A stretch of DNA of 64,000 nucleotides from Chitinivibrionales bacterium (GTDB taxonomy: Bacteria; Fibrobacterota; Chitinivibrionia; Chitinivibrionales; WJKA01): assembly GCA_038247415.1 (NCBI GenBank), contig JBBRUX010000018.1, positions 1 to 64,000 on the forward strand, in the 5' to 3' direction. Positions 10,847-37,549 of the stretch are shown here, piece after piece (the first letter of the stretch is position 1; each line of letters starts with the position of its first letter). The notes beneath the pieces are model-generated. The model searched no databases. It worked only from the letters and a program-made list of their open reading frames with translations, and was not told the origin of the DNA. The translations under genes were made by a program, and so were the position numbers.

Positions 10847-13800
10847 ATGAAAATCGTTCATTTTTTTCGCGAAAAATTCGCACTAGTACTTCTTGTTCCG
10901 CTCTTGCTGGTGTGCACCGAACTCCAAAACCCCTATTTAATCACGGGCAAAGGCAATGTTACGGTAAACACACACGCGGTTTCCGCCGATTCTGCCATAT
11001 CAATTTTTTCTACCTTTTCTATTGTCATGGGGGTCAATAATCCCACCGATATAGCGTCTATTACTTTGATTTGCACGAACAATCGACTCTGGACAAACGG
11101 TGATACAACTCTGGTAGGAGACCTACTACTGCCTTCAATTCCATTGTCAATTTCTATCACCGATACCGGTGCTCAGAGCATTGTAATTACCACACGGTTT
11201 GTTGCAGGAGATAGCACCCAGGCAACAATCCCTTTTAGAGCACAATCGCCACTTTCGCAAGCCGATATATCCTGCGCTCCTGGAGACTCCATGCTCCTTT
11301 CAACCCCGCCAGTTCTCGACAAGGCCACGTATGTCTGGACATTCCCAAATGGGCAGATTATAGAGAGAGACACATCATTTTGTACAATACTTGCTCGCCA
11401 AGATTTCTCTTTTGGCTTTGGTACACTTTCTATTACGGTAGACTCTTTGAGCTCTATCATGGATACCTTTGGCGTTATTGTCAAAGATACAAAGGCACCG
11501 GTAATATCATTTGTTGCAGATAGTAGCATTGGTGATACCATACTTACCAGTTTATCACAATTTAAAATCAAGGTTATTATTAAAGATGGTTCGGGAGAAC
11601 TAAAAAACGTTTCTATCAATGGATTAGGATTTGATTCTATTCCCGCATCATCAACCGACAGCATATATTTAAAAACTATAACCAACCTCGACACTTCACA
11701 TGCTCCATTACCCATTGTTATAAGCGCCGAAGATCGAGCCGGCAACATTGCAACCGATACCATTTATATACGCTACGACAAACAAATCATTTCCATAGTT
11801 ACCCCCCAAATCATATTTGCAGTGCCAGCAACCGACACCTTGACAATTGGAGATTCCTCCCTAATCCTTAGGGGAACTGTGATAAAAATGGATCAGTACG
11901 ACTCGCTTTATCTGTATATTCAAAAAAATTCAACCTTTATTGCACATTCAATTATTATCCAGAAAAGCAACCCAGTTTTTTCATTCCCTATCACCGTATT
12001 AAGCGGATTAACAACTATTTCTGCAGTGGTTTCCCGGTCTGCTGCACAGGGTGCAGATAGTTTAGCGGCATCTTCACGTACACTTATTTATACACCTGGG
12101 GTTCTCGATAAAACGCCCCCCATCATTGCATCTGTTAAGCACAACGGAAAGGATATTTCCGGATCTTACACTGTCGACTCATCATCCATTTCTCTTACGG
12201 TAACAGCATTTGATGCAGGATCAGGCATTGCAGCGCTTTCAATGAATGGACAAGCTACAACTAAATCGACAGGAGAAACGTACAGCGCGCGAATTTCACT
12301 CACGCACAGTGCTGGTGGCAATACCATTTCCATAGTCGCCACCGATTCGGCCAATAATACAACAACCCAAAATGTGTCAATTATAAAAAACAGTCGACCA
12401 CACATTACAATGCTGCATACGCTATCCTACGCCCAAACAAAAACTCTCTTTGCAGATAGCATGAGAGCTGTTGACGTTGATGGCGACAATCTTTCGATGA
12501 AGGTTCAATTGACTTTAGCCAAACGAGACACGAGCATAACACTCTCTCCTAATGGCTTGTATTCTTTTACTCCTGATCCTGCCGACACTCTAAAACCTAT
12601 CGTGGGTAAAGTAAGTGTTTTTGATGGATACACTACAATAGATTCAACATTTATAATTGTAGTGCAACCACCGTTGGTAATACCAGTTCCTCAAGCCCGT
12701 TTTACTATCACTGCTGCTAATTTTCCCGAATCACTTATGGTAGCACGTGATTCACTGAGAAAAGTGCTTTCTATCAATCAGTCTAATGCCGGGGGCAAAT
12801 ATCTCTTTAGCGCGCGTATTGTAAAAAGTAATACGGTTCTTCTGAATAATACCCTCGATAGCGTTCTTAGGTATATTCCAACCATTGCTGATACGGGTGC
12901 CCAAACACTTGAACTTGTAATTAAAAGTGATCTAACTCATTCGGATACCGTGCGTGTACCACTCAGGATTGTTATGCCACCTCCTGTTATAACCGTATCA
13001 TTTGACAAGAATCTCTATTCTGGGTTAGAACGTAATAGTTTGTGTACGCTTACCCTTGCTGCCTCACTCCCTTTGCGAACACCTACACGGATACTTTTTG
13101 ATATTGCGTCAACGTCAACTGCAAAAGCTCTCATCAATTACAAGGCGCCAGACTCACTCGCCGTAACTCTTAACGCCGGTTCGCAAAAAGGGCTTATCAT
13201 TTTTACTTTGCTTCGAGATAATTTGGTAAATGGCACCAAGACCATTGACTTCCGGCTTCTATCTGCTCCGAATGGGGTTTTGCTCGGAATTCCTTCAACC
13301 GCAACGTATTCAATTATTGATATTGATACCAATGTAGTCAAGCCAGATACACCATCGGTCTCTTTTGTTAAAACCGATTCGAGTGGCGCTGAGACAAACA
13401 CAACCATTACTGTTGGTATTGCGCTCTCAAAAAAAGCAACAGCTTCAGGATCTTTTACTATCAAAGCGGCTGGAAGTGCAACCCGAAGGCTTGACTATAA
13501 TATTCTGGATAGCGCTATAGCATTTGTTGCTGGAGATTCTATTAAGCCAATTCGATTACAGATTTTAGATGACACCCTCTGCGAGTCAGCAAATGAAACT
13601 ATTATTCTCTCGATTGCCACAACCGGCATGCTCAAACAAGGTATCAATAAGAATTATGTATATACCATTTTGCCAAGCGACACTCAGAAATGTAACAAAA
13701 ACATTACTATGATTTACGGCGTTGGAACAAAATACAAATCAGATTCGCTGATTGTCGATTCACTCAAATCATGGGGATTTTATGTAACACGTCTTAGTAG

Positions 13801-22080: not shown

Positions 22081-22845
22081 ATGACTGTAACAAAAACAAG
22101 CCTTGAACCAGTTTGCATCAGATGTAAATCCGTGCTCCATACTTCGCAGGATAGGTGCACAGTGTGCGGATCCCTTGCATATCCTCAGGTGAGCCAACTC
22201 TCGCCAGACCACACATTTTCTCAAATGCCGTGGGAAAAAGCATCGCAGATAGGTATACTCAAAGCTTTTTGGCAAACTATTCGTTCTTCGCTCTTCCACC
22301 CAAAAACTTTTTTTAAGCATATTCGCCGTTCAGAAGATACAACCCAAGCCCTGCTCTTTGCACTCATGATAGGCTCTCTGGGCATCCTTATTAATACTAT
22401 GTGGACCTCGCTGGCGATCACAAGCGTTTCTCAAAGCTTTGGAAGCATCCTTTCGCCGGGGGATTCTGCTGGCATTTCGGGGCTTTTGTACTACCCCCTT
22501 TTCGAAATTTGTCAGCTCACCCTACTCACCGGTTATTGCCATCTCATGCTGCGCCTTACAGGAAGTAAAGATATTAAATTCTCGGGGAGCTTTCGCGTCG
22601 TCTGTTATGCTCAATCTGCGATAGTGCTTTCGATCATTCCCCTTATTGGGGGATATATCCTCTCACCTATCCTTATGGTGTACCTGTGCGCTCAAGGATT
22701 GCACCATGCACATGGCGTTTCCAGAACAAAAGCGCTCCTCATTCAAATTATTCCCATAATTATTATAGGGATATTATTCCTTTTTCTCACCGCACTTTTG
22801 ATGATTGGTACTATTGGTGCTGACATTTTTAAAGCTTTATGGTAA
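22081..22845 (+). CDS. YIP1-family membrane protein with N-terminal zinc ribbon
   Basis: CxxC...CxxC; PWE...AFWQTI...PKTFF; about 5 TM. Confidence 0.8.
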   Translation: MTVTKTSLEPVCIRCKSVLHTSQDRCTVCGSLAYPQVSQLSPDHTFSQMPWEKASQIGILKAFWQTIRSSLFHPKTFFKHIRRSEDTTQALLFALMIGSLGILINTMWTSLAITSVSQSFGSILSPGDSAGISGLLYYPLFEICQLTLLTGYCHLMLRLTGSKDIKFSGSFRVVCYAQSAIVLSIIPLIGGYILSPILMVYLCAQGLHHAHGVSRTKALLIQIIPIIIIGILFLFLTALLMIGTIGADIFKALW

Positions 22846-22888
22846 ACTATCCGATAGATATACTAACAGCTCATCAATGGAAACAATC

Positions 22889-23149
22889 ATGGCAAATACA
22901 ATAAAAATGCTTTTGGATGTCGAAATGCCCATTTCAGTGCAACTTGGGCAAACGAGTATGACACTCAAGGAGCTCTTGGCGCTCAAAAAGGGGTGTCTTG
23001 TTCAACTTAAAAGAATGGCTGGTGAGCCTATAGATGCCTTTATGCAAGGAAAGCTCCTTGCAAAAGGCGAAATTACAGTAGTAGACGATAAGCTTTCGAT
23101 CCGAATAGGATCTTTATACGGAGAAAAAGAGCGCTTTAAGCACCTGTAA
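22889..23149 (+). CDS. fliN: Flagellar motor switch protein FliN (SpoA domain)
   Basis: LLDVEMPISVQLG, LKKGCLVQL, AGEPID, AKGEITVVDD. Confidence 0.88.
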   Translation: MANTIKMLLDVEMPISVQLGQTSMTLKELLALKKGCLVQLKRMAGEPIDAFMQGKLLAKGEITVVDDKLSIRIGSLYGEKERFKHL

Positions 23150-33400: not shown

Positions 33401-33447
33401 CAACACAATATCAGGATCAATCCAAAAAAGTTGCGTTTAGATTCCAT
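30418..33447 (-). CDS. TonB-dependent receptor with N-terminal carboxypeptidase-regulatory-like extensions
   Basis: Plug DPLRVLQTLPGV...IIRGG; YIQDEW; SPRV; LKPEK; YHRFDFKISK; terminal Phe. Confidence 0.92.
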   Translation of the reverse strand: MESKRNFFGLILILCCMVFAESTIVTPEAMQFNMEDLGDAQLGVQDSLAINDSITTAHSSNSSVEAESGIVIGGAIIDSLTSVFPQSDRIFVTIDSFSVNVDSTGNFEGRVGSGLVHFVEISAFGYEHFSKMIQIADSKLYYFVTCALVPLKQAETKNVRVTEEPRVSAKIPWTISGSITNAANDLALSIDGMVLYFDSTIIPVSKASAFKIQTYIGGRHVFRVVVPGYKEIFEPIVLGNADKQPYVTLSTTKIGERAIRREINVSAKREALHVTSSVAKTTISQKELIRTVATTNDPLRVLQTLPGVAAQSDMSAQPIIRGGDPLESRIIMDGLSLIQPYHYGGVRSTANQLAMKSLTLYKSGFPAQYYNAQSGLVVLESRRDLDSTVFDFDLNMLQGGAYLSVPLNKERIALNASAQGSWQDFIFKRVLDVAGSMQGEMQYVNEFKKTINLPDYRDASIGLDFRTPQGVDLTVKEIFNSDLSKLTSPSYTSDSSVTDSFGTLVNPTSGIKTDTSLYYRSYYNILFAKAQKTIDMHRLGTLTAAWQKRWWNVSVPFLDDDFVGTTSIPRYDVSIDIVNLAAGLISTRWANHVVNSGIQLDMSYSRFNVDMLRALHQLIVEGNSNYADYIGPLTGDSGAVYTGNDAGNFGANDLFFGSILAGMYTRYKGTSTSLGVNGYIQDEWHATDRLALSWGMRLEFSSADATLMPSPRVCAKYSLNETHELIGALGMYTQNNYDLASLALSDQLKPEKVWHASIGEERRLLPWLTHKVDIYGKYYFDLTSEFITQDFSDFVNRLISDTTGELLQQYILRVNDPNNPMTTEEIIHQITGKDGIYTSTFENSGKGVAYGIDYMLRYNPADFWSGWISASLGNSIRQRNPGWRWHDSPFSRPLLLYLVNYYRLPRKYEIAVKYRFMSGVPYTEFSTKGDSALVIGPYNNKRYAPYHRFDFKISKGFELKHSSGHLYLEVWNPTNVPNFLLRDRKGGGAQSFAMNWPIPFIYLGIDLKF

Positions 33448-34219
33448 GACACCAGCCTAATCCAATATGCCATGAAAAGCCCACATTCCCCGGGGCCTGC
33501 CAATTCGGTGTGCACAGAGAAACTTCAGGAGTTACAATATCAGGCAAGAACGGCATGGAGGGGAGGAAAATTGACATCCCCGCTACTATTCGAATATTAA
33601 CTTTCTGGTCATGTCGATCTAGAAATCCAGCTTCCGAAATCGCTGTAGAATTATCTGCGACATCGGTTGAAAGGAGGTTAATGCGCACATTTGCATAGGG
33701 AAGAAGATATTTATACTCAATGCCAGCAGCATATTCGGCAAAAAAACCATTATCTACCCAAGCGCCAGCATTCCATCCTAAAGACACATTATGGTGATAA
33801 ATACTTTGTGAAAGCGCAAGAAGCGGCAGCCCACAACGAAAGTCAAATTCAGTCAAAGGCGGGCCCAATCCCTCCCCATATTGAGTAGGCCACTCCAGAA
33901 GCATCCCCACTTCCAGACCTCGCCCAAAAGGACGTTTAGGTAAAACTCCAAGGCGATAATCCAGACAATATGACGGCTTCCATACTGCCCTATAGCTACC
34001 TAGACCGAACGTCTGCCGAGCCGCTCCGACATATACTGGAAGAATTACATAATCCGTGAATTTTCTTGCCCCCACCCCAATTGTTACTTCATTCTCACCA
34101 GGATTGAGCAATTTTCCATTATTATACGAATGGGCCGAGAAAAAACAGCCGGGTATGGCTAAAACAGTTATTCCAAGAATAATTGCTACCAGACAACGGC
34201 GCACAAATGTGTGAAACAT
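33437..34219 (-). CDS. Putative lipoprotein/outer-membrane protein in the TonB operon
   Basis: Lipobox-like IPGC; beta-rich; stop overlaps receptor start; start uncertain. Confidence 0.6.
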   Translation of the reverse strand: MFHTFVRRCLVAIILGITVLAIPGCFFSAHSYNNGKLLNPGENEVTIGVGARKFTDYVILPVYVGAARQTFGLGSYRAVWKPSYCLDYRLGVLPKRPFGRGLEVGMLLEWPTQYGEGLGPPLTEFDFRCGLPLLALSQSIYHHNVSLGWNAGAWVDNGFFAEYAAGIEYKYLLPYANVRINLLSTDVADNSTAISEAGFLDRHDQKVNIRIVAGMSIFLPSMPFLPDIVTPEVSLCTPNWQAPGNVGFSWHIGLGWCHGI

Positions 34220-34413
34220 GTGGATATTCTGCGGTAAACAACGGCGCATTAACGAGTGCATAGCTATTTTCTTCATGACAAGAAAATGGTATAAATGCAC
34301 ATCTAATTCAAGCAATGGGGTAATTTATTTGAGGGAGGAAGATTTTTTGTATTCTAAAAGATTCACCATTCACATACGGTAAGACCACATTGCATCTGAT
34401 AAGTATCGCCCAT

Positions 34414-34450
34414 AAAAAAAGCGGATGCAGACTTTTAGCATGCACCCGCT
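34414..34450 (-). terminator. Intrinsic terminator in the leader of the TonB operon
   Basis: AGCGGGTGCA / TGCATCCGCT 10-bp stem followed by T tract on minus strand. Confidence 0.8.
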
Positions 34451-34595
34451 CATCCTGAATATTCAGGGCCTTTATACTCTTTTGCTCTACTCATTTCTTT
34501 GGGGAAGTTATGAGTAAACAAACGCACATTCGGGAGGTGCCTTAGAGTTTCAGGCTGGTTTCATTAAATTGTATCGGCACTTAAATGTGGGTACT
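34414..34595 (-). ncRNA. Candidate structured leader RNA or sRNA, family not recognised
   Basis: Several nested stems, a terminator and a 5' segment complementary to the terminator's 5' arm. Confidence 0.5.
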
Positions 34596-34675
34596 TTAAT
34601 TTTTTTTAAAGTATATTAAAATCTATTTTAATCTGAGCAAGAAATAAATTTAACCAACTCTATTTGGAGGGATTT

Positions 34676-37549
34676 ATGCCTAAAGCTGCCATCACGAAAA
34701 AAACAGTATCCAAAAAAGCTGCCCAGCCACTAAAAAAAGCATCTAAGCCGGCCGCACAATCTCCAACCGCCTCAAAAAATGCTCCTTTTGGCGGACTTGC
34801 GGCTCGCAATGGAACTGGCCCTCTTTGGAAATTTACCGATGCACAAGATGGTTCTTTTATTGTGCCCAATGCCGATTATATTTCTGCATTGTACTTCCCG
34901 CTCTTTAATGAAGCTGGTATGAAATGTAGCATTACACCCGAATTTAAAGGGGATACATGCCGTTCTTTCACCAACTTTCTCTCAATACCATCAGTTACCG
35001 AAGATTTTCATTTAAGTAAAGCTAGTCGTAATTTTTGGGTATATATGGAAGGTCTTCCTGCTTGGTCAACAACAGGGGTGAGTGCATTAAAGACATCTTC
35101 TATGTGGGATAGTTCACCCGAAGACGCAACCGTTCATGCTGGAATCGGATGGTTTTCTACCATCAGGACAAATCGTAAAATGGGGTTATGTGCCGAAGCC
35201 ACAGTTTTTGTTCCATCAAATAATGACATGGTAGAAGTTATGCAGGTGACCATCACCAATACCGGCAAAAAGCCAGTCACCTTTGTCCCAACGTCTGCAT
35301 CCCCTATTTTTGGGCGTTCTGCAGACAACATTCGCGACCATCGTCAAGTAACCTCCATGTTTAACGAAATCGAAATCGCGCCTTTTGGGGTTATAACAAA
35401 AGCTCGCATCCTGCATGATGAACACGGACATCGACCCAATACAACCCAGTACGCAACCTTTGCTTGCTCAGAAAAGGGTGAGCAGCCCAAAGAAATTTGG
35501 TCGAACCAGAAGGAATTTATTGGCGAAGGCGGGTCACTTGACAATCCAGAATCAGTTGCGCGCAATCTCAAGGCTCCAAAGATAGGTACATTCCTAAAAG
35601 ATGGGGTTGAAACCATTGCGGGTTTGCGATTTGCAAAAGCTACTCTTGTCCCCGGTGCCTCAAAATCATATATCATCATCCGAAGTATCAGCGATGATCG
35701 CGACTATTTTGACACTATGATAAAAAAATACGGATCAAAGAGCGCTTTTGATGAATACCTGGAAGAAACAAGCGCTTATTGGAACGATCTTATCGGGCGC
35801 ATAAGCTATACCACTGGGAACTCCGACTTTGACAATTGGATGCGCTGGGTTGTATTTCAACCCTTCTGCCGCAAAATATATGGAAATTCGTATCTGCCCG
35901 ATCATGACTATGGCCGTGGCGGCCGCGGGTGGCGAGACCTCTGGTCGGACCTTCTTGCACTCTTTTTAGTCGACCCATCTTCTACACGCTCCGATATTAT
36001 CAATAACCTTCACGGAATCCGCATCGATGGAACCAATGCAACGATAATTGGATCGAAACCAGGGGATTTTGTTGCGGATCGCAACAATGTTGTGCGTACA
36101 TGGTGTGATCATGGCACGTGGCCTTATTTTGTGGTTGATTTCTACCTTAACCAGACCGGCGACTACGACCTTCTATTCAAGGAAATAACCTACTTCAAGG
36201 ACAAATTCTCACATCGAAGCAAGAAAATTGATGAAGCATACACTACGTCAATGGGAAATTTTCAGAAAGATACTCATTCCGAAGTTTACAAAGGAACAAT
36301 TCTTGAGCATATCCTTATTCAACAGCTTTCCTCGTTTTTTAATGTGGGCATTCATAACAATTTGCTCTTAGGCGGCGGAGACTGGAATGACACGTATGAT
36401 ATGGCTCGAGACAAAGGAGAATCAGTCTGTTTCTACAACTGGTTTGGCATGAACTTGCATTGTATTGCACAGGTTCTCGACCATCTTGCAAATAACGGTC
36501 ATCCGAGCATTTCTTTACTCGAAGAAATTAAAATTTTGCTCGATTCGCTCCCTGGTCAAACCAAAATCAATTACGAATCGGTTTCTGCTAAGCACGCGCT
36601 CCTTAACACTTATTTCGATACACTAGCATCTTCGGTAAGTGGTATTAAGGCTGCTATACCCACCAAAGAACTTGCTAAAGATCTTCGTCGCAAAGCAGAC
36701 CACATTTTCGAGCATATCCGCAGCAAAGAGTATGTCACCACAGCAGAAGGGTTTAGCTTCTTTAACGGACATTACGACAACGACTCTGTGCGAGTGCATG
36801 GTGACCATAAAAACGGTGTGCGCATCGACCTAACATCCCAAGTGCTTGCCACTATGTGTGGCACCGCCAATCAAGATCAGGTAGTGGAAACATTCCGTTC
36901 AATCAACAAGTACCTTAAAAACAAAAAAACTGGTGGCCTCAGCCTCTGCTCGGATTTTGGTGAAGTAAAGCTCAATTTTGGTCGGGTTACAGGTTTTGCC
37001 TTTGGCTGGCGTGAACATGGTTCAATCTGGAGCCAGATGAATGTAATGTACCTGTATGCGCTTTACTCACGCAACTGCGTTGAGGAGGGGTATAGCGTTC
37101 TTAAAGATCTCATTATTTTGTCAATAAAATCGGAACAAAACCGTGTTTTTCCCAACATTCCTTCGTGCTTTCAGCTCAATGGCAAAGGCATGAGCAATTA
37201 TCTTACCGGTTCTCCTACGTGGCTAGTTCTTGCTATGACAAGCCTTGTTTTTGGCGTTAGGGGCAACGCTGGTAATCTGTGCATTAACCCCAAGCTTAAA
37301 AAGGAACAATTTTCTAAAGATGGGATCGCTTCAACGACCTTTAATTTTCACGACAAAACTGTCGCCCTCACCTATGTGAACAAGAAAAAACTTGAATGGG
37401 ACAAGTACGAGATCTGCAGCGCAACTTGCAATGGCACAGATTTGTTACGTAAAGAAGGATCTGCAAAAAACATGCTTCTCGTTGACAAAAATGATTTCAT
37501 TGCACTCTGTAATCAACTGGTCAATGAGATTATTGTGATACTTGCCTAA
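34676..37549 (+). CDS. GH94 glycoside phosphorylase, laminaribiose phosphorylase-like
   Basis: LYFPLFNEAGM, SRNFWV, GRSADNIRDHR, HDYGRGGRGWRDLW, DWND, YLTGS; GGAGG RBS before ATG 34676. Confidence 0.9.
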   Translation: MPKAAITKKTVSKKAAQPLKKASKPAAQSPTASKNAPFGGLAARNGTGPLWKFTDAQDGSFIVPNADYISALYFPLFNEAGMKCSITPEFKGDTCRSFTNFLSIPSVTEDFHLSKASRNFWVYMEGLPAWSTTGVSALKTSSMWDSSPEDATVHAGIGWFSTIRTNRKMGLCAEATVFVPSNNDMVEVMQVTITNTGKKPVTFVPTSASPIFGRSADNIRDHRQVTSMFNEIEIAPFGVITKARILHDEHGHRPNTTQYATFACSEKGEQPKEIWSNQKEFIGEGGSLDNPESVARNLKAPKIGTFLKDGVETIAGLRFAKATLVPGASKSYIIIRSISDDRDYFDTMIKKYGSKSAFDEYLEETSAYWNDLIGRISYTTGNSDFDNWMRWVVFQPFCRKIYGNSYLPDHDYGRGGRGWRDLWSDLLALFLVDPSSTRSDIINNLHGIRIDGTNATIIGSKPGDFVADRNNVVRTWCDHGTWPYFVVDFYLNQTGDYDLLFKEITYFKDKFSHRSKKIDEAYTTSMGNFQKDTHSEVYKGTILEHILIQQLSSFFNVGIHNNLLLGGGDWNDTYDMARDKGESVCFYNWFGMNLHCIAQVLDHLANNGHPSISLLEEIKILLDSLPGQTKINYESVSAKHALLNTYFDTLASSVSGIKAAIPTKELAKDLRRKADHIFEHIRSKEYVTTAEGFSFFNGHYDNDSVRVHGDHKNGVRIDLTSQVLATMCGTANQDQVVETFRSINKYLKNKKTGGLSLCSDFGEVKLNFGRVTGFAFGWREHGSIWSQMNVMYLYALYSRNCVEEGYSVLKDLIILSIKSEQNRVFPNIPSCFQLNGKGMSNYLTGSPTWLVLAMTSLVFGVRGNAGNLCINPKLKKEQFSKDGIASTTFNFHDKTVALTYVNKKKLEWDKYEICSATCNGTDLLRKEGSAKNMLLVDKNDFIALCNQLVNEIIVILA

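Follow-up and report, generated by a model that had tools for sequence, protein, structure and literature searches.

The question raised by a short intergenic gap in a genome of the Chitinivibrionales (phylum Fibrobacterota) is what purpose is served by a strongly structured RNA that is encoded there on the minus strand. The gap lies within the 64,000 nucleotides (nt) that we have analysed, positions 1 to 64,000 of contig JBBRUX010000018.1 (assembly GCA_038247415.1), referred to in what follows as the window. An original prediction, made from the letters of the window, had described the RNA as a new riboswitch or attenuator for an outer-membrane importer, with a free-standing 6S-like small RNA (sRNA) as the fallback. 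Here we argue for a different answer, to which we assign a probability of roughly 65%: the element is a FliA-dependent, trans-acting antisense sRNA of flagellated Chitinivibrionales that represses the translation of one flagellin.

Nine distinct homologs, obtained from BLAST against relatives and from one pattern scan of genome contigs, were used to build a covariance model, and their alignment contains, in order, the blocks TAAAGT, CCGATA, GCACCTCCC..TGTG and CTC.TA.CTTCCCCAA, a variable part and the terminator. The promoter of the window, TAAAGT-N14-GCCGATAC, agrees with the published sigma-28 consensus TAAAGTTT-n11-GCCGATAA (PMC2859248). A relaxed form of the sigma-28 pattern parses in all 49 homologs having upstream sequence, with TAAAGT, TCAAGT and TTAAGT as variants of the -35 element and usually with an A-tract 5′ of it. 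Because the invariant TAAAGT and CCGATA enclose a segment of fixed length whose letters are not conserved (34583-34594, GUACCCACAUUU), this segment is the promoter spacer and, to judge from the sequence, most likely is not transcribed; the original prediction had placed the 5′ end of the RNA here (GUACCC-A-CAUUU), an assignment that has to be given up. The TATACT box that it noted at 34610-34615 is indeed present in letters, but lacks a -35 partner and is not conserved among the homologs, and a scan of 34250-34750 for sigma-70 promoters returned no promoter-like sites. We infer transcription, its start and its dependence on FliA from the promoter and its geometry, by which the sRNA would most likely begin at about 34562-34565, for a length of about 150 nt.

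Sigma-28-type promoters are not confined to the sRNA. The pattern TAAAG-N14-16-CCGATA occurs 20 times in the genome from which the window derives (the source genome), as compared to 9 occurrences of the reversed control, and the motif pair is found 5′ of a flagellin gene on contig C81, of a flagellin-family open reading frame (ORF) on contig C17, both checked against Pfam, and of a Pfam-checked FliN-like ORF in the window itself (Table 1). It is found also 5′ of ORFs that, read from their sequence only, resemble flagellins (contigs C13, C28 and C56), FliD and FlgM. The source genome contains fliA (261.8 bits, above the cut-off), as do 68 of the 81 genomes of the order in total.

The elements that the original prediction had listed on the minus strand, a bulged stem, an enclosing stem, a palindrome and a terminator, are all present in the sequence and in the folds at the coordinates collected in Table 1, and the RNA of about 150 nt to which they belong is real. 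The minimum free energy of a 206-nt stretch is -57 kcal/mol, as compared to -39.0 ± 3.5 kcal/mol for 200 shuffled sequences (z = -5.15), none of which folds as well. The conserved architecture is a closing stem, P1, around two hairpins with C-rich loops, H1 and H2, followed by the terminator. In the nine-sequence alignment GCACCTCCC of H1 and CTTCCCCA of H2 are invariant. H1 hardly varies: among 49 sequences its closing pair changes from GC to AU in 9, the CUUCCCC loop of H2 is fixed and its stem varies with compensation (both-side changes at all 5 modelled pairs), and both-side changes are found at 10 of the 11 modelled pairs of the terminator.

Covariation was quantified on a 50-sequence alignment fitted to the model, in which P1 is not included. 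Over the three modelled helices 93.8% of cells are paired, as compared to 82.5% in shuffles and a maximum of 58.8% in slid controls, and the both-side changes number 150, against 46.8 in shuffles, with none of 500 shuffles reaching the observed value. As for P1, an enclosing stem of at least 5 pairs is found in the minimum free energy folds of 45 of 49 distinct homologs, with letters that vary by lineage (for example, CUCCG/CGGGG and CCUGAA/UUCAGG). A simple terminator scan did not list the sRNA terminator, we think because its apical part probably exceeds the 3-8-nt loop limit of the scan; the folds and the covariation support it. No conserved ORF was noticed in the aligned sRNA sequences on inspection by eye, with no formal scan made. 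Nor is any GGA conserved in the sRNA alignments, the conserved loops being C-rich (CCUCCC and CUUCCCC), and for this reason a CsrA sponge of the CsrB/RsmY type was rejected.

The covariance model, which scores the window's own sRNA at 113.3 bits (34414-34563), finds the sRNA in 52 of the 81 Chitinivibrionales genomes (one match being judged spurious), in 32 of the 48 of high quality and in 25 of 33 genera; a genome seldom has more than a single copy. The sRNA is present in 48 of the 68 FliA-positive genomes and in 4 of the 13 FliA-negative ones; of these four, one is the spurious match and the other three are in genomes that are 77-91% complete. Three matches of about 30 bits, one in the order (G047) and two outside it (G092 and G154), were rejected as terminator-like hairpins only, lacking the C-rich motifs. 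The match in family f13, outside the order (G090, 38.9 bits; L165, G090:C26:6780-7030, plus strand), represents a true homolog, in which the same sigma-28 promoter and the pair of C-rich loops are retained, so that the sRNA family is older than the Chitinivibrionales. For family f10, also of the phylum, the model was run on 55 genomes and gave no matches.

As the original prediction had anticipated, the RNA belongs to no known Rfam family. Rfam 15 at gathering thresholds gives no matches on either strand of the 64-kb window, and a lax scan of 34200-34800 (E up to 10) gives matches at the level of chance only, with no 6S among them. RNAs with C-rich loops are known from the Firmicutes, for example RNAIII of Staphylococcus aureus, whose C-rich loop motifs pair with Shine-Dalgarno regions. 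The best lax match is to RNAIII (RF00503) and falls on the CUUCCCC hairpin and the terminator; membership was rejected, since the match scores 24.5 bits where the gathering threshold is 47 and leaves most of the model's 504 positions deleted. The two RNAs are alike in having hairpin loops with C-rich motifs and differ in phylum, size, promoter and targets. We found no published description of the sRNA, subscription journals lying outside the coverage of the search. The sRNA is thus a new family, of a kind, the FliA-dependent trans-acting sRNA, that is already known.

The predicted target was found in the source genome on a contig other than that of the sRNA. The C81 flagellin gene encodes a protein of 281 amino acids with Flagellin_N and Flagellin_C domains, is followed by a FliS-like gene and is preceded by a near-perfect sigma-28 promoter, TAAAGTTT-N11-GCCGATAA, from which its mRNA should, by promoter position, begin at or just before AUGGGGAAGUUAUGAGUAAAC. 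The Shine-Dalgarno sequence GGGAGGUG of this flagellin has its complement in the H1 loop CACCUCCC, and the GGGGAAG at the 5′ end of the mRNA has its own in CUUCCCC; to this 5′ end the 5′ arm and loop of H2 are antisense over 22 of 22 nt. In a short-word BLAST search of the 3.84-Mb genome this match has E = 2.8e-5 and, the sRNA itself apart, no other is significant (the next having E = 0.41); a separate search of the genome gives 33 nt at 88% identity. The energy of the duplex is -56.5 kcal/mol, as compared to -24.8 ± 3.9 kcal/mol for shuffled leaders, and a net gain of -32.3 kcal/mol is left after both RNAs have been unfolded. By the same duplex energy the C81 leader is the best non-self candidate among 20 places in the genome with two sites (GGGAAG followed by GGAGGT 10-110 nt later), the runner-up being the C17 flagellin-family gene (locus L170, Table 1) at -45.4 kcal/mol.

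In order to follow this complementarity through the order we identified flagellin orthologs by a protein search (E <= 1e-62) with extraction of their leaders; it replaced a single strict DNA pattern of promoter and leader that had given at least 12 of 81 genomes, the source genome (G000) not being among the matches listed. By the protein search 52 of the 81 genomes have an ortholog. The sRNA and the ortholog are found together in 45 genomes, the sRNA only in 7 (6 without the spurious G047), the ortholog only in 7 and neither in 22; the corresponding Fisher p value of 2.7e-8 is not used as evidence since the genomes are kin and G047 is included. A sigma-28 promoter is present in all 51 ortholog leaders recovered, and the G-rich 5′ motif, one-letter variants being allowed, was found in 47 of them, beginning 7-9 nt past CCGATA. 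Of the 45 leaders from genomes bearing the sRNA, 39 contain exact copies of both motifs and 6 of one motif. Among the six leaders from genomes in which no sRNA was detected both motifs are lost in three (G060, G061 and G014; leaders L157, L156 and L159), which lack GGGGAAG and the exact GGGAGGU, and this loss hints at the sRNA as the reason for their retention elsewhere.

Complementarity to the flagellin leader recurs in 44 genomes. Energies of the cognate duplexes range from -27.7 to -69.9 kcal/mol, as compared to about -19 to -25 ± 4 kcal/mol for shuffled leaders, and the net gain on cofolding averages -18.6 kcal/mol over the 44 genomes, against -5.1 kcal/mol for shuffled leaders (5 shuffles per genome), being better by more than 5 kcal/mol in 38 of the 44. 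In the source genome and its nearer relatives the predicted pairing spans almost the entire leader, and the reverse complement of the sRNA core resembles a compact copy of the flagellin leader. For four of seven families (f1, f2, f3 and f8; 12 genomes) the cognate pairs are better than pairs with leaders of other families by 11-21 kcal/mol. As a general test of co-evolution this comparison was set aside, since it succeeds for these four families and not for f4, f5 and f9, and is confounded by leader length as well. The same four families show lineage-specific compensatory changes, for example UUAUG/CAUAA versus GCUAUG/CAUAGC, as well as GCUAA/UUAGC and CAUUU/AAAUG.

Table 1. Positions of the sRNA and its parts, of neighbouring features of the window and of a second flagellin-family gene of the source genome (window numbering unless a contig is given).
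Feature	Position	Strand	Remarks
-35 element TAAAGT, sigma-28 (FliA)-type promoter	34593..34598	-	invariant in the nine-sequence alignment; A-tract 5′ of the element
Promoter spacer	34579..34592	-	length constant (TAAA-N16-nCCGATA), letters different in every homolog
-10 element GCCGATAC, sigma-28-type	34571..34578	-	CCGATA invariant
sRNA, about 150 nt	34414..34564	-	start from promoter geometry; end is the U-tract of the terminator
Closing stem P1, 5′ strand (GCCU ... ACUCU)	34544..34555	-	
Closing stem P1, 3′ strand (AGAGU ... AGGC)	34468..34480	-	
Hairpin H1, GCAC-CUCCCGAAU-GUGC	34524..34540	-	displays the anti-Shine-Dalgarno-like CACCUCCC (34532-34539)
Hairpin H2, 13-bp bulged stem	34481..34522	-	apical part displays CUUCCCC (34501-34507)
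Palindrome hairpin CCUGAAUAUUCAGG in linker	34454..34467	-	particular to the source genome, not in homologs; linker variable
Intrinsic terminator	34414..34451	-	11-bp G+C-rich stem and small apical stem (34421-34451), then U7 (34414-34420)
Intergenic gap between divergent genes	34316-34676		hosts the sRNA on the minus strand
GH94-like gene	start codon near 34677	+	one flank of the gap
292-aa ORF	33437-34315	-	other flank of the gap; no Pfam or NCBIfam family match
TonB-dependent-receptor-like ORF, 1009 aa	30418-33447	-	Plug and outer-membrane beta-barrel matches sub-threshold
Second sigma-28-type promoter match in the window (TAAAGC-N..-TCCGATA)	22830-22856	+	
90-aa ORF with FliMN_C (FliN C-terminal) domain	22877-23149	+	directly 3′ of the 22830-22856 promoter match
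Divergent 286-aa flagellin-family protein	C17:50220-51080	-	Flagellin_N 46.8 bits, Flagellin_C 25.7 bits; sigma-28 promoter; leader with GGGGAAG and AAGGGAGGUGU

Several observations weigh against an sRNA dedicated to this flagellin. In families f4, f5 and f9, which contribute 32 of the 44 genomes, the cognate pairs are not better than non-cognate ones (differences of +1.8, -0.8 and +9.7 kcal/mol in the comparison confounded by leader length), the two short seeds alone are conserved, and changes in the H2 arm are matched by its own partner strand and not by the mRNA. The evidence for co-evolution across families is thus mixed. The remaining three of the six leaders from genomes without a detected sRNA keep both motifs, and there are 20 FliA-positive genomes in which no sRNA was detected. 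The source genome contains 361 sites complementary to one seed (GGGGAAG) and 43 complementary to the other (GGGAGGTG); short C-rich seeds of this kind can fit many G-rich ribosome-binding sites, so that the regulon may be broader or different. Further, GGA-containing 5′ ends are found in other sigma-28 transcripts, and conservation of GGGGAAG may therefore reflect another factor, such as CsrA. Finally, the counts given above overstate independence, the genomes being related by descent and the structural alignment having been fitted to the model.

The first alternative that must be weighed is that the sRNA is a general regulator with C-rich loops, sigma-28-dependent in its expression, which binds many mRNAs, several class-3 flagellar transcripts among them, where their ribosome-binding sites are G-rich or their 5′ ends rich in GGA, and for which the C81 flagellin is just one target and perhaps not the main one. 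The conservation of the two short seeds alone in 32 of 44 genomes would be expected of such an RNA, as would the starts AUAGGAG, AUAGGGAAG and AUUGGAG of other sigma-28 transcripts of the source genome, the position of the C17 flagellin-family gene as the next two-site candidate and the occurrence of GGGAAG and ACAGGGAGGU in the leader of the C28 flagellin as well. On the other hand, the 22/22-nt match to C81 is unique in the genome, the compensatory changes in f1, f2, f3 and f8 single out the C81-type leader, and the sRNA and the flagellin ortholog go together in 45 genomes, against 7 and 7 with one of them alone. We consider a general regulator of this kind unlikely, although it deserves to be kept in mind.

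A second alternative assigns the sRNA a positive role, in which it shields the leader from CsrA or from a 5′-end-dependent RNase and in so doing stabilises or activates the flagellin mRNA. The genes fliW and csrA are adjacent in the source genome (C8:72600-73134, minus strand), forming a CsrA-FliW partner-switch module. In Bacillus subtilis CsrA binds the hag leader at two sites, the 5′ end and the Shine-Dalgarno sequence, and in the C81 leader these are the positions of the two motifs complementary to the sRNA, both of which contain GGA. Control of flagellin mRNA by CsrA-FliW has been reported in Campylobacter jejuni (PMC4894983). Against a positive role, the predicted pairing takes in the Shine-Dalgarno sequence GGGAGGUG from end to end and should block ribosomes no less effectively than CsrA would, and the textbook CsrA-like CAAGGAC hairpins sit on other paralogs, C13 and C56, and not on C81. 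We regard this alternative as improbable.

Two observations on the leaders of late flagellar genes in the source genome may be recorded here. The predicted sigma-28 transcripts on contigs C12, C13, C17, C28, C74 and C81 start with a purine-rich GGA motif 6-9 nt past the -10 element (AUAGGAG, AUAGGGAAG, AUUGGAG, AUGGGGAAG), which may be a shared 5′-end signal of late flagellar mRNAs, either a CsrA site or a further sRNA site. The MRINHNI-type flagellin genes on C13 (promoter at 2252, plus strand) and C56 (promoter at 12363, plus strand) have long leaders with CAAGGAC or CAAGGAUG, one copy lying just before the start codon. By their sequence these hairpins look like classical CsrA sites, and the C81 leader differs from them; together with the presence of csrA-fliW this raises the possibility that the flagellin paralogs are split between control by protein and control by RNA.

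We return now to the riboswitch or attenuator of the original prediction, in which the choice between terminator and antiterminator would control a TonB-dependent importer operon downstream. In the source genome the sRNA does lie 5′ of the 292-aa ORF, the TonB-dependent-receptor-like ORF and tonB, in that order and all on the same strand, and the proposed pairing of 34583-34594 with the 5′ arm of the terminator does exist here (-13.1 kcal/mol). This pairing is not conserved, however, the mean energy of the cognate spacer-terminator pairs being -5.75 kcal/mol as compared to -5.60 kcal/mol for non-cognate ones, with the cognate pair better in 22 of 49 cases, and its 5′ partner is the promoter spacer. 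Nor is the setting conserved: in a tblastn comparison of three window proteins (those of the 292-aa ORF, the TonB-dependent-receptor-like ORF and the GH94-like gene) with 30 sRNA loci, each taken with flanks of about 1.5 kb, the one locus to match was that of the window itself, so that these neighbours are found at none of the 29 others. Moreover, the conserved single-stranded parts of the RNA are antisense to the flagellin leader and do not resemble an aptamer-like core. A switch for the importer, contradicted as it is by the comparative data, is thus very improbable and was rejected. Least credible of all is the idea that the RNA resembles 6S, or that it is what remains, without function, of a flagellin promoter and leader that had been duplicated. 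The fallback of the original prediction was right that the RNA is free-standing, and the resemblance of its core to an inverted copy of the flagellin leader makes an origin by duplication plausible. There is no Rfam match to 6S, however, and the architecture is not a rod with a central bubble. Selection for function is suggested by a conserved promoter and terminator of its own, compensation in three helices and retention of the RNA by 25 of the 33 genera.

Comparison across loci ties the sRNA to no single operon. The commonest neighbour is a gene for a TPR protein upstream, the downstream gene being variable (an SSF symporter, proteins without a family, a DUF4388 protein). In most genomes the sRNA gene lies directly 3′ of a same-strand TPR-repeat gene of 255-285 codons (loci L070, L075, L078, L085, L088 and L090); this context is probably ancestral, and the contexts in the window and in genome G002 differ from it. 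The 292-aa and 1009-aa ORFs of the window may together form a divergent TonB-dependent transporter module.

The reading that we favour, that of an antisense sRNA directed at one flagellin, can be put in terms of a simple mechanism. RNA polymerase with FliA (sigma-28) would transcribe both the sRNA and the flagellin, the sRNA being ended by its own intrinsic terminator, and transcription driven by FliA would make the sRNA a member of the late (class 3) flagellar regulon. The closing stem would hold the two hairpins, whose loops would present CACCUCCC and CUUCCCC, and these C-rich seeds would act in trans by pairing to the mRNA at two places, its Shine-Dalgarno sequence GGGAGGUG and the GGGGAAG at its 5′ end; in some lineages pairing would zip along the whole flagellin leader. 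With the ribosome-binding site covered, translation of the flagellin would be repressed, and a long duplex could also invite cleavage by RNase III. The result would be an incoherent feed-forward loop, driven by FliA, by which one flagellin is restricted, or timed, with respect to the others. We infer both the pairing in vivo and the repressive sign of its effect; that the sRNA tunes flagellin production is probable.

Systems of a related kind have been described. According to Konig et al. (2024, PMC11187230), CJnc170 (FlmR) of C. jejuni is, like the sRNA proposed here, a stand-alone, unprocessed, sigma-28-dependent sRNA of the late class in a host with CsrA-FliW; its over-expression shortens flagella and lowers motility, a negative effect on flagellar output, and its targets are given there as unsettled. 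CJnc170 differs in being 47 nt long and is unrelated in sequence and structure, whereas the Chitinivibrionales sRNA, at about 150 nt, displays a pair of C-rich loops and shows complementarity to the leader of a flagellin transcribed from a sigma-28 promoter. The Escherichia coli sRNAs FliX, MotR, UhpU and FlgO are likewise controlled by sigma-28 and modulate fliC levels and flagellar number, FliX lowering fliC mRNA and MotR and UhpU raising fliC, according to Melamed et al. (2023, PMC10578931). The same source derives them from untranslated regions of mRNAs, flagellar ones among them, and places their pairing sites within the coding sequence of fliC, whereas the Chitinivibrionales sRNA is encoded in an intergenic region unrelated to these, with a promoter and a terminator of its own, and is predicted to pair with the 5′ end and the Shine-Dalgarno sequence. 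A parallel in terms of the sites involved is a protein: as in the hag leader of B. subtilis, CsrA-FliW represses flagellin translation through two GGA sites in a short leader, one of which is the Shine-Dalgarno sequence. For C. jejuni, too, control of flagellin mRNA by CsrA-FliW has been reported (PMC4894983). CsrA recognises GGA in hairpin loops, whereas the Chitinivibrionales sRNA would cover comparable sites by base pairing.

This parallel suggests a broader picture, which we put forward tentatively and which may well turn out to be incorrect in one or more of its parts: the sRNA, made under the flagellar sigma factor itself, would be an RNA counterpart of CsrA that closes off the same two kinds of site (a GGA-rich 5′ end and the Shine-Dalgarno sequence) on the leader of one flagellin paralog, the flagellins would be split between CsrA-FliW and RNA checkpoints, an incoherent feed-forward loop driven by FliA would set the composition of the filament or the timing of its assembly, and the core of the sRNA would have arisen by inverted duplication of the leader and have co-evolved with it since.

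For the locus itself the analysis removes a false lead, in that the idea of a new riboswitch for a TonB-dependent importer can be dropped. To our knowledge, sigma-28-dependent sRNAs that tune flagella have so far come from a few Proteobacteria and from Campylobacter, and we know of almost no RNA biology and of few cultures for the Fibrobacterota. The sRNA adds, in this phylum, an unrelated and well-conserved family of sigma-28 sRNAs with an unusually explicit predicted target. It thereby offers a testable case both of RNA control layered over the CsrA-FliW flagellin checkpoint and of the balancing of filaments built from multiple flagellins.

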